Positions 216 through 5,288 of a stretch of 5,383 nucleotides of DNA are shown piece by piece (the first letter of the stretch is position 1; each line of letters begins with the position of its first letter). Below the pieces are notes generated by a model that was not told the origin of the DNA, did not search any database, and saw nothing but the letters and a program-made list of their open reading frames with translations. This DNA comes from a virus (lineage: Duplodnaviria; Heunggongvirae; Uroviricota; Caudoviricetes): the IMG/VR virus record IMGVR_UViG_2609459799_000011. One strand, given 5' to 3'. A program made the position numbers and the translations under genes.

Positions 216-953
216 TCATTCACTCTCTTTCAAACCAGTTTTAACTGTTTGGGGTTTTGGGTAAGGCTGGACTTTGAATAGCTTTATGTTGAGGCGTTTT
301 CTGGCCCTCTTGTTCAGAAACCGGATGTAACGAAACTGTCGGAACTTATGAACACTGGCTCTGTCGATATTAGCCCTCAGATGTTCACCTCGTTGTCCGC
401 CTCGTTTAATGGCATTCCTGCAAATCTCGTGATACCACTCGCCATCAAGTTCATAGAATGTTGATTCATGGCTGCCTACATAATCAAAATTGCTTGCCTG
501 ATACACGACACCAAGACAGCCACAACGCTCATCTGCAAACGACTGAACCCACTGTACCTGCGGATAAAGCTGTCTGATAAGTTTGAGTGCGTAACTGATG
601 GCCCTTGATTCGGAGTTTCTCGGCATACAGTCATGCAGCCATAACCGGTTAAGCTCCATATATTCGCGGTTCTGCGTACCGGTTACGACGCGCGCTCCAC
701 TGTTTGGATTAAGGGCATAACCCCATTGCATTACGCCAACCAGCTCTCGTTCTGAAAATATACCCAGATGAAGGTAGGAGTTATTTACGAAACGGTGGCT
801 GTAATGTTTATTGACGATGACCAGTCGGGCCAGCCAGCAACTTATTGTCTCAACCCGTAACTCACGGGAGCCATAACCGACGATATTGTCGTTATAGAGA
901 ATAAGTTCAGGCGTGCTGATGATACGGGATGTAACTTGTTTTCTGTTCCCCAC
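216..953 (-). CDS. mom: Mom-like DNA modification protein (adenine-modifying anti-restriction function of Mu-like phages), 245 aa, probable GTG start.
   Basis: 245-aa ORF starts with GTG (no in-frame ATG until about residue 75), overlaps the 3' end of the upstream zinc-finger com-like gene by 47 nt in another frame, and has AGGAA 8 nt upstream. Identity is from synteny with com and gin; Mom sequence itself is not recalled. Confidence 0.75.
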
Positions 954-1107
954 GACAGGATTTCCTTGTGTATGTGGGGTGCTCTGTGGCGCTCGGAGAT
1001 GTGATTTGATTGAGGGTTTTACAGCGCGGACATTTTACTTCCAGATAACTGAAACTGGCCCGTGCCAGTAACTTGTTGCAGTGTCGGCACCGTATGTTTC
1101 GATACAT
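907..1107 (-). CDS. com: Com-like zinc-finger translational activator of mom, 66 aa.
   Basis: ATG start with AGGAGG about 10 nt upstream. Cys pairs CRHC and CPRC resemble the Mu Com zinc finger, and the N-terminus ([14 protein letters not shown]) resembles recalled Mu Com (MKSIRCKNCNKLL). It overlaps the mom start. Confidence 0.75.
948..979 (-). promoter_or_regulatory. mRNA stem-loop sequestering the mom start codon and Shine-Dalgarno (translation-inhibition structure).
   Basis: On the minus strand CCCCAC (plus 974-979) pairs with GUGGGG (plus 948-953), which contains the GUG start; the loop holds AAGGAAA, and CAAGGA can pair with UCCUGU inside it. Confidence 0.5.
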
Positions 1108-1330
1108 GGCCGCATAACCTCCTGCTTTGTTGATGATATCTTTCTCGCCTAATCGATCGACAAAAACGATCGATTCGATGTGTTTAATTGATACAACAAA
1201 TAGATTGAAAAGTCATCAACAATGATTCAGGGAGGTGATTATTTACTAAAAGAAAACGAAGACTTAGGGTGTGAAAACGATCATAAAATGATCATTTTAT
1301 TGACTTTTTATCCAGTGAAGGTAGGATCGC
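1108..1330 (-). promoter_or_regulatory. GATC-rich upstream region of com-mom; candidate Dam-methylation-sensitive promoter control region.
   Basis: Five GATC sites in about 175 bp (1155, 1168, 1279, 1290, 1324), in palindromic contexts: TCGATCGA (1153-1160), CGATCGAT (1167-1174), and the 14-bp perfect palindrome AAAATGATCATTTT (1285-1298). No promoter hexamers could be assigned with confidence. Confidence 0.4.
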
Positions 1331-1367
1331 GCGCATATGTAGTATGTTTCAAATCAACAGGATACTA

Positions 1368-1406
1368 CATAAAAGGGAAACCCAGCATAGCTGGAACTAT
1401 GCTGGG
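1368..1406 (-). terminator. Candidate rho-independent terminator for leftward transcription.
   Basis: Perfect 10-bp inverted repeat CCCAGCATAG (1381-1390) / CTATGCTGGG (1397-1406) with a 6-nt loop; on the minus strand it is followed by UUUCCCUUUU. Confidence 0.45.
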
Positions 1407-1513
1407 TCAATCTGTAAAAACTTGCATCAATGCTTTACTTCGAGCTCGTGGCGTATCCTATGATATTCCCCGGTCTCCTGTAAAGCAGAGATATATCTGT
1501 TCAGGCAGGAAAA

Positions 1514-1720
1514 ATGGATAAACTAACCACAGACCCAAAGTTACAGGCTGCGCGAATTGCAGCTGATATTACAATTGCAGCAATGACATCCACCAGGGGT
1601 AACTTTACCTCTTTTCATACAGCAGGTGATTCATCCGCTATGCAGTTATGGAACGCGTGCTTTTCTGATGTAATTCGTGCAATCAGCGAGTCAGTTGACC
1701 TTCGCGAACCGCAAAAATAG
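1514..1720 (+). CDS. Hypothetical small protein, 68 aa.
   Basis: ATG preceded by AGGCAGGAAAA. It is convergent with the next ORF and overlaps its 3' end by 38 nt, so one of the two may be spurious. No recognisable motif. Confidence 0.35.
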   Translation: MDKLTTDPKLQAARIAADITIAAMTSTRGNFTSFHTAGDSSAMQLWNACFSDVIRAISESVDLREPQK

Positions 1721-1883
1721 CGCATCTTGGGGTACACAGGATCTGCATAGCTATCCACATTGCGGTGGCGAAGTTTCGATCCTGTAATGTATCTTCATCA
1801 AGTCCTGAACGTAGCGCATTGATAATTTCCGCGCTTAATCTTTCTAGGCCTTTGGTATCAGGTTGCTTTTTATTCTTGTCCAT
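1683..1883 (-). CDS. Hypothetical small protein, 66 aa from the internal ATG (78 aa if the upstream ATG at 1919 is used).
   Basis: The internal ATG at 1883 has AGAGGA 8 nt upstream; the ATG at 1919 has no Shine-Dalgarno. Same strand as the two small genes upstream. Confidence 0.4.
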   Translation of the reverse strand: MDKNKKQPDTKGLERLSAEIINALRSGLDEDTLQDRNFATAMWIAMQILCTPRCAIFAVREGQLTR

Positions 1884-1958
1884 GATTATTGTCCTCTGAT
1901 TGGTATATAAAGCGCCCATGAAAATAAAACCGACAGGAGAAACTGCCGGTTTGTATTG

Positions 1959-2213
1959 TTACATCATGGTGCTGTCAGTTCCGGGCTGAGCCGGTTCTGG
2001 TTGCTCTGGCTGCGCGTCGGTTTTCGGTTCATTATCAGCATCACTGGCCGCTGCTGCTGGCCCAATAAGTTTTTCCAGCACCTCATCAACGTAAGTGTCG
2101 ATTTGTGCCTCAAAATCCTTGCGGACCTGCGCTTTCAGCAACTTATTTACTTCACCGGAATACAGTGCCTGTTTTACCAGGTCTTCAGTGACGGTGCCTT
2201 TAATTTCTGGCAT
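1959..2213 (-). CDS. Hypothetical acidic protein, 84 aa, with a helical-looking N-terminal half and a Pro/Ala/Gln/Glu-rich tail.
   Basis: ATG with strong AAGGAGG 6 nt upstream; 35 nt downstream of the preceding small gene; acidic composition. Confidence 0.55.
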   Translation of the reverse strand: MPEIKGTVTEDLVKQALYSGEVNKLLKAQVRKDFEAQIDTYVDEVLEKLIGPAAAASDADNEPKTDAQPEQPEPAQPGTDSTMM

Positions 2214-2248
2214 GTATATCCTCCTTATGCGGGAATAAAGCCCTGCAA

Positions 2249-2431
2249 TCAGGGCTGGGTCGGGTCTTTTGGGAGCGGAGTTGCCTGCGCTGTTTTACTG
2301 AGTTTTTCAGCTGCTGCGTCCTCAATTTTGCGGCGAACATAATTTCTGATGGCCTTATAACCACCACTCACCAGATATAACGCACATACTGCCGTGCAGA
2401 AATACAATAAAATAAGCTGTAAAAATGTCAT
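2249..2431 (-). CDS. Hypothetical small single-pass membrane protein, 60 aa from ATG at 2431 (the ORF track starts at a TTG at 2443).
   Basis: ATG at 2431 with GGGAGGG 5 nt upstream. Residues about 3-23 (FLQLILLYFCTAVCALYLVSG) form a hydrophobic helix followed by a charged tail. Confidence 0.5.
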   Translation of the reverse strand: MTFLQLILLYFCTAVCALYLVSGGYKAIRNYVRRKIEDAAAEKLSKTAQATPLPKDPTQP

Positions 2432-2526
2432 TATCCCTCCCAATTATTGACATGGTGTTGACACCGGTAATATCTGTTAGGTAAAAAGGTGCACTGCATT
2501 TTTTGCTTTGGATATAACGATCTTTT

Positions 2527-2568
2527 TGCCGCCGGTTTCTTGTTTTCCCTTACCGGCGGCATTTTTTT
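2527..2568 (+). terminator. Rho-independent terminator oriented for rightward (plus-strand) transcription, with no plus-strand gene upstream.
   Basis: 10-bp stem TGCCGCCGGT (2527-2536) / ACCGGCGGCA (2552-2561) followed by TTTTTTT (2562-2568). On the minus strand the hairpin is followed by A-rich sequence, so it is not a canonical terminator for the esterase gene. Confidence 0.45.
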
Positions 2569-2575
2569 ATCCTGC

Positions 2576-4630
2576 TTACGCGTTATTCACTTCCACCACG
2601 ATACTGTCAATCAGTACCGGGTAAGTCGCATTTTTAGTGATATCGGTCACGCGCAACTTGTCTGCCGTAAACGTGCCGACCGGAGACTGCGACAGCATGA
2701 ATGGTGTCCCGTCCTTACCATCAATGACCGGCGTCACCTCAATACTGTTGTTACCGGCAAAACGGAAGCCCAGCGTATGCCATTCGTTATTAAATGCGCC
2801 GAATGACCCCAGCTTCGTGTTCTGCGCCGTGTTTCCTTTGTGATACATCACGTTAAGGTCTGTGGCATCGCTCTGTACGTAGAACGATGCCAGCAGGTTA
2901 TGACCGGCATTTCCTTCCAGAGTAACCCCTTGCGGCAGGGCAGAAACCGGCCAGTACAGCGCCAGTGCGTACTGATTAGCCGTAAGCGCGCCATCGAGTT
3001 TAAAACGACAACTGACAAGACCACCTTTACCCAGCAGGTCCGCACCATTACCAGCATCATGCTCAAGGTACCAGGGGGCTCTTCCTGTTTCCTTGGTCAG
3101 TTTCATTGCCTTACCCCCGCTGGCTCCGGCATCATCCACGATTTGAGCCTTGCCACCTCCGGCAGCCCAACCCTGTGGTGTCAACCGTCCTTCAGACTCA
3201 GATGCCCGGTAAGCAAATAGCGTACTCATCGTCGTGGTGTCTGCGGGTGGCGTGGACGGTTTTGATGGTGTATCAGGTGACGGCTTCTCATCCGGTGGTG
3301 TCACGGTCTGCCCGCGCATCAGTTCAGCCGTGCGCCCTGCATGGAGCATAATAGCTGAGGCCAGACGGTCTGAAATGACGCCCCTGCGTGCCCATGAGCT
3401 GAAATGGCTGTCACGCTGTGTCGAAACAAAACTGCCCTGGGTTCGGGATGCTGCACCGTAATACCCGACAGCCACAATATCCGGGTCTTCCGCCGGAGCA
3501 TTCGTTGGCGTGCTCTGTCCATTCTCATCCGTCAGGAACGGTACAAAGAAAATTTTCTGTGCTTCCTTGCCTTTGTAGCCACCGTATACTGCCTCATATT
3601 TATCGGTGCCAGCGTTTTTCCAGTAATACGTGGTATCACCGCAAATCCACGGCACCGTGGTGGCATTTCCACTCACGCACTGCGCAGCAAGCGGAGCCAG
3701 GTCAGTTCTGAACTGCTGAACCATGGCCGTGAATAAACTATTATGCTGCTGGCTTCCTGAGGCAAGGTCTGCCTCTCCCTGCATCCAGACCACAGCCAGA
3801 AGTTTGTTTTTCGGGTTTTTCGCCAGCGCGACTTTGGTGCGGCTTACCAGGTCCTGATACAGAGGTTTACCGGCCCCCCAGCGTGAAGAATCAGCGGAAG
3901 CACCGCTGGCCTCACTGAATGAGCCGTCGGCTCCAGTGGTGAATGCTGACCCGCCACGACAACAGGGCACCAGAAGTATCCCGGCATTCTGTGGGATATA
4001 GGGAAGCAGTTTTTTGGCAATATGCAACCCCTGACCGACAGTCCCGTACTGGCCTTTTGCCAGATCAGCTTTCGGGTGGTTTATCCCGCTCATATCCTGA
4101 ACATCATGCAGGCAGTGGTCTGCCGGAATGATGTCGTTGTATGTACACGACGTACCGTTGGGCGTTACCGTACTGCGGCGTGCCAGTTGCTTAATGCGTG
4201 GGTCCGGGCGGTCAAACGAATCCGGTAACGGCAGCCCCTCGCCGTAGGCCATGCCATTTGACTGACCCGCGAGAATGACAACAAAGTAATATTCCGGCTC
4301 TGAACTGCTGCCATTCGTGCTACCGGAAGGCCCGGCGTTATCCGGTGCATTCCAGTCGGAGGGCGTGAGCGTTCCGGCCACGTCAGATGTGATTGGAATG
4401 ATGCCAGTCACGCCTGAACTGGTGATTTCTGCACTGGGATTACCGGATACCGGCATTACCCATAATGGCTCTTTCGTGCTGAAGCGGATCACGCAGTCTG
4501 CGAAGGTGATCCCCCCTTTATTACCCGAAGGGCGGAAAGGGCTTTCAATAAATGCCACCGTGCCACCGGCAACCTTGACTGAAAACTCTCCGGGCATGGC
4601 GGAGAGCATTTTCCACTTGGAGTCTGACAT
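2576..4630 (-). CDS. Putative carbohydrate O-acetylesterase of the SASA/SGNH-hydrolase type (phage NanS-p-like), 684 aa, with a Pro/Thr-rich linker and lectin-like C-terminal domain.
   Basis: Motifs LAGQSNG (residues 120-126; Ser124 at nt 4259-4261), WMQGEAD (282-288) and DSH (407-409) resemble sialate O-acetylesterase family signatures as recalled. Linker QTVTPPDEKPSPDTPSKPSTPP is at about residues 441-468 (nt 3227-3310), followed by a roughly 215-residue C-terminal region. No N-terminal signal peptide is evident. Confidence 0.8.
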   Translation of the reverse strand: MSDSKWKMLSAMPGEFSVKVAGGTVAFIESPFRPSGNKGGITFADCVIRFSTKEPLWVMPVSGNPSAEITSSGVTGIIPITSDVAGTLTPSDWNAPDNAGPSGSTNGSSSEPEYYFVVILAGQSNGMAYGEGLPLPDSFDRPDPRIKQLARRSTVTPNGTSCTYNDIIPADHCLHDVQDMSGINHPKADLAKGQYGTVGQGLHIAKKLLPYIPQNAGILLVPCCRGGSAFTTGADGSFSEASGASADSSRWGAGKPLYQDLVSRTKVALAKNPKNKLLAVVWMQGEADLASGSQQHNSLFTAMVQQFRTDLAPLAAQCVSGNATTVPWICGDTTYYWKNAGTDKYEAVYGGYKGKEAQKIFFVPFLTDENGQSTPTNAPAEDPDIVAVGYYGAASRTQGSFVSTQRDSHFSSWARRGVISDRLASAIMLHAGRTAELMRGQTVTPPDEKPSPDTPSKPSTPPADTTTMSTLFAYRASESEGRLTPQGWAAGGGKAQIVDDAGASGGKAMKLTKETGRAPWYLEHDAGNGADLLGKGGLVSCRFKLDGALTANQYALALYWPVSALPQGVTLEGNAGHNLLASFYVQSDATDLNVMYHKGNTAQNTKLGSFGAFNNEWHTLGFRFAGNNSIEVTPVIDGKDGTPFMLSQSPVGTFTADKLRVTDITKNATYPVLIDSIVVEVNNA

Positions 4631-4703: not shown

Positions 4704-4735
4704 TTCAAAAAAGCGTCACGGTACTTTTGGTGACG
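4704..4735 (-). terminator. Weak candidate terminator overlapping the invertase stop codon.
   Basis: Minus strand: stem CGUCAC (plus 4730-4735) / GUGACG (plus 4714-4719) with a 10-nt loop, then C plus UUUUUU (plus A-run 4707-4712). The invertase stop codon lies within the 3' arm. Short stem and large loop suggest it is leaky. Confidence 0.35.
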
Positions 4736-5288
4736 GAGCTGGTGAGGCAGGAAAATAACGATAAAGGGTGGAAAGGCCAATATCAAATATCAGTGCGATT
4801 TGTTTACGGGACTCGCCATTAGCCAGCAAACGGGCGATTTGCTCCCGCTCTTTCTCTGTCAGTTTCTGAGGTCTGCCGCCATGACGCCCCTGAGCACGGG
4901 CAGCAGCAAGACCCGCGCGTGTACGTTCAATAATGAGTTCCCGCTCCATTTCCGCCAGCGCGCCCATTATATGGAAAAAGAAACGTCCCATGGGAGTGGA
5001 TGTATCAATATTGTCCGTAATGCTGCGGAAGTTAACGCCGCGTTGCCGGAGTTCTTCTGTTAAAAGGACAAGGTGCTGCATACTGCGTCCAAGGCGATCC
5101 AGTTTCCAGACCAGCAGGGTATCCCCTGGCCGGAGTCGCTTTAATGCGCGTTTAAGTCCGGGACGCTCCCTTGTCTTACCGCTTATTCTGTCTTCGAAAA
5201 ACAGCTCACATCCTGCACATTCCAGCGCATTTCTTTGTAGCGCCGTATTCTGGTCATTTGTTGACACCCTGATATACCCAATCAGCAT
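4716..5288 (-). CDS. gin: Serine DNA invertase of the Gin/Hin/Pin/Cin family, 190 aa.
   Basis: N-terminus MLIGYIRVSTNDQNT...LQRNAL, the stretch GDTLLVWKLDRLGRSM, MGRFFFHIMGALAEMERELIIERT and a C-terminal helix-turn-helix (LSTLYRY) closely match Gin and Hin as recalled. AAGGAA lies 5 nt upstream of the ATG. The symbol gin is chosen from the com-mom context. Confidence 0.9.
   Translation of the reverse strand: MLIGYIRVSTNDQNTALQRNALECAGCELFFEDRISGKTRERPGLKRALKRLRPGDTLLVWKLDRLGRSMQHLVLLTEELRQRGVNFRSITDNIDTSTPMGRFFFHIMGALAEMERELIIERTRAGLAAARAQGRHGGRPQKLTEKEREQIARLLANGESRKQIALIFDIGLSTLYRYFPASPAPSPKVP

Follow-up and report, generated by a model that had tools for sequence, protein, structure and literature searches.

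The three small genes and their neighbors

The subject of this analysis is a row of three small genes on the minus strand of a stretch of viral DNA (Caudoviricetes; IMG/VR record IMGVR_UViG_2609459799_000011), referred to below at its full length of 5,383 nucleotides (nt) as the window. The window covers the right-hand end of an E. coli prophage that is Mu-like. Over bases 1100-2700 it shares 99.9% identity with E. coli FORC_069, in which a complete Mu-like prophage of approximately 38 kb lies inside a fimbrial usher gene and the same three coding sequences are annotated by RefSeq. An earlier note, made from the sequence alone, had reported three co-oriented genes downstream of an esterase gene, each with its own Shine-Dalgarno sequence, and had placed them in the accessory region of a prophage. 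The positions and spacing of the genes were confirmed from the open reading frames (ORFs) and the sequence, and their location in the accessory right end of a Mu-like prophage was borne out. The features on which the argument depends are as follows, in the direction of transcription of the three genes.

2576-4630, minus strand: NanS-p-type carbohydrate esterase of 684 amino acids (aa), with SASA and C-terminal DUF6645 domains (PF03629, PF20350; phrog_143, E 1.7e-296)
2488-2575, plus strand: candidate antisense small RNA (or antisense-facing terminator) of about 75-85 nt, fold -25 kcal/mol, z -4.8
2249-2431, minus strand: gene 1, DUF1378, 60 aa from its ATG, an ORF with Pfam and PHROG matches
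1959-2213, minus strand: gene 2, DUF826, 84 aa, an ORF with Pfam and PHROG matches
1927-1952, minus strand: intrinsic terminator found by scan, a 10-bp stem and 6-nt loop, then UUUUAUUUUC; -14 kcal/mol, z -3.96
1493-1929, no strand assigned: variable cassette of 437 bp holding gene 3 and a convergent 68-aa ORF, delimited by pairwise BLAST against loci L003-L005
1683-1883, minus strand: gene 3, 66 aa, an ORF supported by its substitution pattern
1514-1720, plus strand: 68-aa ORF, convergent with gene 3 and sharing 38 nt with the 3' end of that gene

The stop codon of the esterase gene lies 144 nt upstream of gene 1, and the intervals between genes 1 and 2 and between genes 2 and 3 are 35 nt (2214-2248) and 75 nt (1884-1958), respectively. 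The Shine-Dalgarno sequences, read from the sequence, are GGGAGGG for gene 1, AAGGAGG for gene 2, and GAGGA for gene 3. Gene 1 has an alternative upstream TTG at 2443 that would give a protein of 64 aa. For gene 3, a 78-aa version starting from the ATG at 1919 was rejected, as a 1-nt indel between the two ATGs breaks it in a 92%-identical allele (locus L003), and the 66-aa start is therefore the correct one. All three genes are true coding sequences under purifying selection. In comparisons of alleles the ratio of non-synonymous to synonymous change (pN/pS) is 0.26-0.47 for DUF1378 and 0.07-0.68 for DUF826, while gene 3 differs from the L003 allele by 12 synonymous and 4 non-synonymous substitutions (pN/pS 0.09, p 9e-6). 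On two points that the earlier note had singled out for checking, the reading frames are kept across homologous loci, and no homology to Mu genes of assigned function was found.

None of the three proteins had been recognized from the sequence alone, yet genes 1 and 2 belong to catalogued families, both of which are annotated 'unknown function'. Gene 1 matches PF07125 (DUF1378) over residues 1-58 of the 59-position profile (E 9.4e-33, 112.6 bits) as well as phrog_494 (E 4.6e-33), and gene 2 matches PF05696 (DUF826; E 3.9e-15, 56.2 bits) and, over its full length, phrog_311 (E 1e-28); the Pfam gathering cut-off is 25 bits for both families. Gene 3 matches no catalogued family and belongs to a tiny one specific to Mu-like phages, and searches of sequences in the PDB with all three proteins returned nothing meaningful.

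The description of the 60-aa protein as a single-pass membrane protein is upheld by one hydrophobic stretch at residues 3-21 (Kyte-Doolittle 2.27). The N-terminal transmembrane helix, approximately residues 3-24, leads into the basic motif SGGYKxIRNYxRxKI, and the juxtamembrane residues S22, G24, Y25, K26, I28, R29 and N30 are invariant in the copies from E. coli, Cedecea, and Rosenbergiella. Beyond S-G-G-Y-K-x-I-R-N the DUF1378 proteins are basic, then form an alanine-rich helix, and finish in a variable proline-rich end. Because of the positive-inside rule, the topology is predicted to be N-out, C-in. Gene 1 is 63% identical to the copy in O157 TW14359 and has no match to a holin family in Pfam or PHROG; it has a single transmembrane domain and a basic juxtamembrane segment, and distant members of its family are coupled to Rz.

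The 84-aa protein is acidic with a disordered tail, as had been proposed: its isoelectric point is 4.2, its net charge is -9, and residues 61-84 have a predicted local distance difference test (pLDDT) score below 50. In the AlphaFold2 model a short helix (residues 10-17) and a long helix (residues 20-50, pLDDT 84-95) precede the tail, which is acidic and proline-rich. Gene 2 is approximately 40-55% identical to the lambdoid copies, and a word-indexed homologue search with DUF826 returned only close relatives from E. coli and Shigella. The C-terminal end of gene 2 is conserved (..QPEPxQPGTDxxMM), and across the family, in which total length runs from 79 to 127 aa and the tail is variable in length, an end of the form ..[QE]PEP..(T/M)M(L/M) recurs. 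A tail of changing length with a constant end motif suggests a docking peptide.

A mobile esterase module in lambdoid and Mu-like prophages

DUF1378 and DUF826 are the fixed 3' part of a mobile module made up of the gene for a NanS-p-type sialate O-acetylesterase, a spacer with an antisense element, DUF1378, DUF826, and a terminator. This module is common to lambdoid (Shiga toxin, Stx, type) and Sp18-type Mu-like prophages of E. coli, and the window has its order, in which DUF1378 and then DUF826 come after a SASA-type esterase gene on one strand, with gaps of 144 and 35 nt. The survey was based on 83 DUF1378-encoding loci; the genome-contig scan yielded just 3 loci. In every one of the 70 E. 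coli-type loci surveyed, the esterase gene, with which the module begins, is linked to both DUF1378 and DUF826. The order gin, esterase, DUF1378, DUF826, com, mom is found in 32 Mu-like loci (context A), and is the same in six annotated genomes, while 38 lambdoid loci have esterase, DUF1378, DUF826, holin, and endolysin (context B). O157:H7 TW14359, for example, carries esterase, DUF1378, DUF826, a class II holin, YdfR, and lysozyme. DUF826 follows DUF1378 by 23-40 nt in 66 of 66 E. coli-type loci. In four lambdoid loci (L051, L054, L063, and L074), DUF826 breaks off after residue 52 at an insertion that resembles the C-terminal part of an esterase (approximately 4221-4680 in L051, L054, and L074 and 1674-2133 in L063), which indicates that recombination between esterase copies is active at that spot.

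At its 3' end the module is closed by the intrinsic terminator, which lies directly after the DUF826 stop codon. The stem is preserved in L003, because the base change there turns a G-U pair into A-U. In M3-type and Sp18-type loci, which lack gene 3, homology to the window resumes at 1927-1930, that is, at the terminator. The three small genes had been grouped as one set, but the conserved trio consists of the esterase, DUF1378, and DUF826; gene 3 is on the far side of the terminator and is part of a variable cassette.

More distant DUF1378 genes occur in other settings. In two Rosenbergiella genomes and seven viral contigs (context C), the start codon of a DUF1378 gene whose product is 50-59% identical overlaps the stop codon of Rz and closes a holin-endolysin-Rz/Rz1 cassette, with both the esterase and DUF826 absent nearby. 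A Cedecea locus (L013; context D) has DUF1378 alone after tail-fibre genes, and in the viral loci L086-L088 of the same context there is no esterase, DUF826, or lysis gene nearby. Conversely, prophages PP2 and PP5 of enteropathogenic E. coli (EPEC) E2348/69 have the esterase and a holin with the pair absent between them (PP2, L096 2767-3213; PP5, L097 2832-3265), and among phage records the esterase is found in 347 and DUF1378 in 309. These esterases without the pair show that the linkage of esterase and pair is strong but not obligatory.

The pair itself is not new. DUF1378 and DUF826 are already known as a catalogued pair and as neighbors of nanS-p in Stx phages; in Stx2a phages they appear in some annotations, between nanS-p and the holin gene S, as ORFs of unknown function (PMC10462455). 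A search of the literature under older locus tags such as L0106 and ECs1208 found nothing relevant. In hundreds of Stx-converting and related prophages the pair sits between the toxin and esterase genes and the lysis cassette. The lambdoid module of the 933W/Sakai type shares with the window the two families, their order and spacing, the esterase, and a similar spacer with a hairpin. It differs in lying directly upstream of the holin and endolysin genes, whereas the module in the window lies between gin and com-mom and is followed by a terminator and then gene 3. What the window adds is a new copy of the pair in a less usual, Mu-like setting, and a rare orphan gene.

The esterases of the two lineages also differ. 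Lambdoid NanS-p proteins have an N-terminal DUF1737 domain, which anchors the phi24B protein gp84 to the capsid according to a preprint (10.64898/2026.04.10.717836). The esterase of the window has no DUF1737, and Pfam gives SASA and DUF6645 only. Lambdoid esterases align with it from approximately residue 96-114, and those of Mu-like prophages from residue 1-4. Residues 1 to approximately 100 (window 4330-4630, minus strand) are an N-terminus common to Mu-like copies only, and virion attachment specific to this lineage may be the task of this domain.

The spacer of 144 nt that separates the esterase gene from DUF1378 is 75-89% identical to that of lambdoid loci, compared with 67-75% for the DUF1378 coding sequence, and is thus at least as conserved as the coding sequence. 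Its antisense element has TTGACA boxes at 2447-2452 and 2458-2463, a U-rich body, a 10-bp GC hairpin, and a run of seven U residues set against the esterase stop codon. Every allele type keeps the A-run and the hairpin, with differing stem sequences. The element has the same position, strand, and architecture (U-rich body, hairpin, and U7) as PasA and PasC (EcOnc51/52), known from EPEC and enterohemorrhagic E. coli (EHEC), whose coordinates in E2348/69 are listed in Table S6 of PMC8550237. These are Hfq-dependent small RNAs, which according to a 2026 preprint are flanked by sialic-acid esterase and holin-lysozyme genes. The esterase-holin interval of E2348/69 lacks DUF1378 and DUF826, unlike the window. 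In PP2 (L096), two successive antisense elements, each a hairpin with a U-run, correspond to the major and minor 3' ends of PasA.

Identification of the spacer element with either known RNA family by sequence was rejected. The match to Rfam Esr41 (RF02676) scores 22.2 bits, where the gathering score is 102 (E 0.68 in a search of the entire window, 0.033 in a 261-nt search), and blastn with PasA and PasC gave nothing significant, either in the window or in DUF1378-bearing lambdoid loci. Given the weak Esr41 match and the blank blastn result, the element is a candidate that is a member of neither family.

Gene context and the possible function of the pair

The data show that the three ORFs are real genes and make up two unrelated units, the esterase-module pair and gene 3. 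For the pair we suggest, with low confidence, a late role in lysis or release that is exerted at the inner membrane; the explanation as a whole is held with slightly more confidence than doubt. A late role of this kind is ranked first because lysis genes are the only recurrent neighbors of DUF1378 besides the esterase, namely the holin downstream in E. coli lambdoid phages and the coupling to Rz in distant phages. In the scheme that we tentatively propose, DUF1378 and DUF826 would be co-transcribed with the esterase and made late in infection. DUF1378 could then serve as a basic membrane anchor (N-out, C-in) with DUF826 as its acidic soluble partner on the cytoplasmic face of the inner membrane, and the two together might be an accessory factor of lysis or release; each of these steps is held with low confidence. 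If the pair affects the timing of lysis, this would have a bearing on the release of Shiga toxin.

A number of observations weigh against a role in lysis. Neither homology nor experiment points to a function for DUF1378, DUF826, or the family of the 66-aa protein. The pair in the window is approximately 20 kb away from the lysis genes of its own prophage, and a sigma-70 promoter scan found none of good quality for the pair or for gene 3, which leaves late timing presumptive in the Mu-like context. The alleles of DUF1378 and DUF826 recombine freely. A Rosenbergiella phage with DUF1378 appears, from the N-terminal sequence, to have an ordinary endolysin and not one of the signal-anchor-release (SAR) type. 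Finally, PP2 and PP5 together with the roughly one in ten esterase-bearing phage records that lack DUF1378 imply that the pair is dispensable for both esterase and lysis.

In the main rival of the lysis interpretation, the pair would assist the esterase itself, for example by anchoring it in the membrane or by acting as its chaperone, processing factor, or virion-attachment factor, a reading that we regard as possible but unlikely. It would account for the adjacency of pair and esterase in all 70 E. coli-type loci, lambdoid and Mu-like, although every other neighbor differs, and for the high conservation of the spacer between esterase and DUF1378. The lambdoid esterase phi24B gp84 is, moreover, a processed capsid-decoration protein according to the preprint cited above (10.64898/2026.04.10.717836), so that helpers of assembly or processing are conceivable; searches by term of its running text found no virion protein resembling DUF1378 or DUF826. 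Distant DUF1378 genes, however, stand beside Rz or after tail-fibre genes with no esterase, and esterases occur without the pair in PP2, PP5, and about 10% of phage records. The linkage itself may reflect no more than the transfer of a contiguous block that ends at the terminator.

Such transfer raises the question of whether the pair has any function in a Mu-like prophage, or is a functionless passenger of an esterase captured from a lambdoid phage. The coincidence of the module boundary with the terminator and the absence here of the lysis cassette that neighbors the lambdoid copies would both fit passengers. Against this, both ORFs are intact in all 32 Mu-like loci, where alleles are as little as 59% (DUF1378) and 70% (DUF826) identical, and pN/pS is well below 1 among the Mu-like alleles. 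The idea is already disfavored by these selection data, and we consider it very improbable.

The earlier note had speculated that small membrane and acidic proteins of this kind are cargo for superinfection exclusion, toxin-antitoxin activity, or anti-defense, that is, lysogenic conversion. A small single-pass membrane protein is typical of exclusion proteins. The pair does lie in the accessory right end of the prophage, next to gin and mom, and read-through from gin, which in Mu is expressed in lysogens, is possible in the Mu-like context. PADLOC, however, gave no match for any small protein of the window, and no toxin, antitoxin, or defense family was found among these proteins in Pfam or NCBIfam. 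The synteny of DUF1378 with late and lysis genes points elsewhere: in lambdoid phages the pair is in the Q-dependent late operon just before the holin, and the translational coupling of distant DUF1378 genes to Rz means late lytic rather than lysogenic expression. A role in lysogenic conversion is consequently quite improbable in our estimation. Neither the grouping of the three genes as a new system nor the functions suggested for it are supported; the genes are ordinary prophage cargo.

Returning to a late role in lysis or release, one specific form that it might take is suggested by analogy with Mu gp25, the releasin, which has an N-out/C-in anchor, an anionic cytoplasmic domain, and a basic junction (PMC9239132). 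DUF1378 shares with it the N-terminal transmembrane segment, the predicted N-out/C-in topology, and the basic junction; DUF826 would supply the anionic helical part, and both are encoded among late or lysis genes in most contexts. The pair could then regulate lysis as two polypeptides tethered to the membrane, with DUF1378 as the basic anchor and DUF826 as an anionic coiled-coil partner. It would be a split analogue of the releasin that tunes the release of SAR endolysin or the triggering of a pinholin. The releasin is, however, a single protein, and here its features would be spread over two polypeptides with no sequence or profile similarity to it. This prophage, furthermore, already has a DUF2730 gene of its own, and hhalign comparison with the DUF2730 protein gave a probability of 0.1% for DUF1378 and 0.7% for DUF826, so homology of the pair to this releasin family was excluded. 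We view the split analogue as a long shot. If it were true, the pair would help to time the release of Shiga toxin and esterase in most Stx phages, and its retention in Mu-like prophages would mean that it works with unrelated lysis systems.

The comparison of loci has narrowed the hypotheses, in that the pair crosses between lambdoid and Mu-like phages with its module, is under selection away from lambdoid lysis genes, and has distant DUF1378 relatives that are coupled to Rz. The message of the window itself is modest: a known pair and an unrelated, rare orphan gene, with no sign of a new defense or toxin system.

Gene 3, its cassette, and the remainder of the right end

Gene 3 is an unrelated gene of the Mu lineage, carried in a separate cassette beyond the terminator. 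Of 5426 complete E. coli genomes, 17 contain the 437-bp cassette. It occurs in none of the phage records, and 9 of the 28 informative Mu-like viral loci have it (19 lack it). In Sp18-type prophages a different stretch of 203 bp replaces it. As the cassette is paired with esterase alleles that are anywhere from 53 to 100% identical to that of the window, it moves independently of the esterase module. The gene 3 protein has the motif NFxxAMW[IL]AMQxxC[GT]P and is modeled as a soluble helical protein of four helices (pLDDT 80), with no significant fold match. Among 5.8 billion proteins, only five near-identical clusters were found.

An exhaustive HMMER search of 1.84 billion representatives added three distant relatives (P0071, P0072, and P0073) of 64-78 aa, which are 36-42% identical along almost the entire protein. 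Each comes from a Mu-like phage and has the AMW[IL]AMQ motif. Their genes are found immediately behind a DUF1804 (Mu gp27-like) gene, or no more than a few hundred bases downstream of it, and upstream of a large gene that precedes the portal gene. Judging by size and position, this large gene, which has no Pfam match on record, is taken to encode the large terminase. Gene 3 resembles these relatives in size, motif, and Mu-like hosts. It is probably, although we hold this with low confidence, an accessory protein of the late packaging region that has moved to a new site. The relatives are in the late operon, whereas gene 3 is at the right end, in the opposite neighborhood, and is the sole copy; at the gp27 junction of this prophage no second copy was found, and an unrelated 82-aa ORF occupies the site. 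Cargo genes on the reverse strand seem to insert preferentially in the stretch from the gp27-like gene to the gene that precedes the portal. In one locus (L010 6259-7116, minus strand) a gene 3 homologue is followed by a convergent gene for a 285-aa DUF4145 protein. In lambdoid phages a class II holin takes the same position as gene 3, 75 nt after DUF826, and the possibility that gene 3 is a holin remnant was rejected, as there is no similarity between the two.

The 68-aa ORF on the opposite strand is possibly a real gene. It differs from L003 by 7 synonymous and 5 non-synonymous changes (p 0.01), a weaker synonymous excess than that of gene 3. The 38 nt that it shares with gene 3 contain four substitutions, none of which alters the gene 3 protein, and three residues are changed in the 68-aa frame. 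A word-indexed homologue search with the 68-aa ORF returned near-identical sequences only. The 68-aa ORF and gene 3 could together form a self-contained cassette inserted beside the esterase module, in which one might regulate the other through the antisense overlap, or which might be a pair resembling a toxin-antitoxin or small defense system. Both frames show a synonymous excess, and the genes travel together as the 437-bp unit among very different esterase alleles. The distant Mu-like contig L009 has the same convergent layout, in which an 88-aa ORF overlaps the gene 3 homologue by 26 nt and shares the N-terminal pattern TTDxxxQxARIAAD with the 68-aa ORF. The similarity of the L009 partner, however, spans only 18 residues, and two other loci (L010 and L011) have a gene 3 homologue with no partner of the 68-aa type. 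In AST198-type loci (L006 and L017), the first 37 codons of the 68-aa ORF are missing but gene 3 remains intact, and neither member has a family, defense, or toxin match. We therefore think a two-gene system distinctly improbable.

The rest of the window contains the following features.

4716-5288, minus strand: Gin-type invertase gene
1379-1408, minus strand: second terminator-like hairpin with a 13-bp stem, found by terminator scan between gene 3 and the com-mom promoter region
907-1107, minus strand: Com gene
216-953, minus strand: Mom gene

Related prophages with independent insertions align from window base 88, so bases 1-87 are host DNA, and they correspond to the truncated fimbrial usher gene; the right end of the prophage is at approximately base 88. 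The sequence TTTGATAC(C/T) is repeated three times, at 105-113, 127-135, and 162-170, and these copies are probably the end repeats to which the transposase binds. Just upstream of com, a 25-nt palindrome AATCGATCGACAAAAACGATCGATT at 1151-1175 contains two GATC sites and is terminator-like on the plus strand according to the scan. This palindrome is reminiscent of the Dam-methylation/OxyR control region of the Mu mom promoter.

A 99-aa ORF at 1222-1521 (plus strand) is the truncated 5' part of a 154-aa ORF of Sp18-type prophages (L005), the C-terminal end of which is cysteine-rich and zinc-ribbon-like; RefSeq treats the 99-aa ORF as a pseudogene. The strong minus-strand hairpin at 1408-1379 falls inside this ORF, and L003 has a 79-bp insertion at window position 1402. 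In the related Mu-like prophage of E. coli AST198 (L006 2669-3875), a Com-family gene is followed by a DNA cytosine methyltransferase gene that replaces mom, and the esterase, DUF1378, DUF826, and 66-aa genes are retained.

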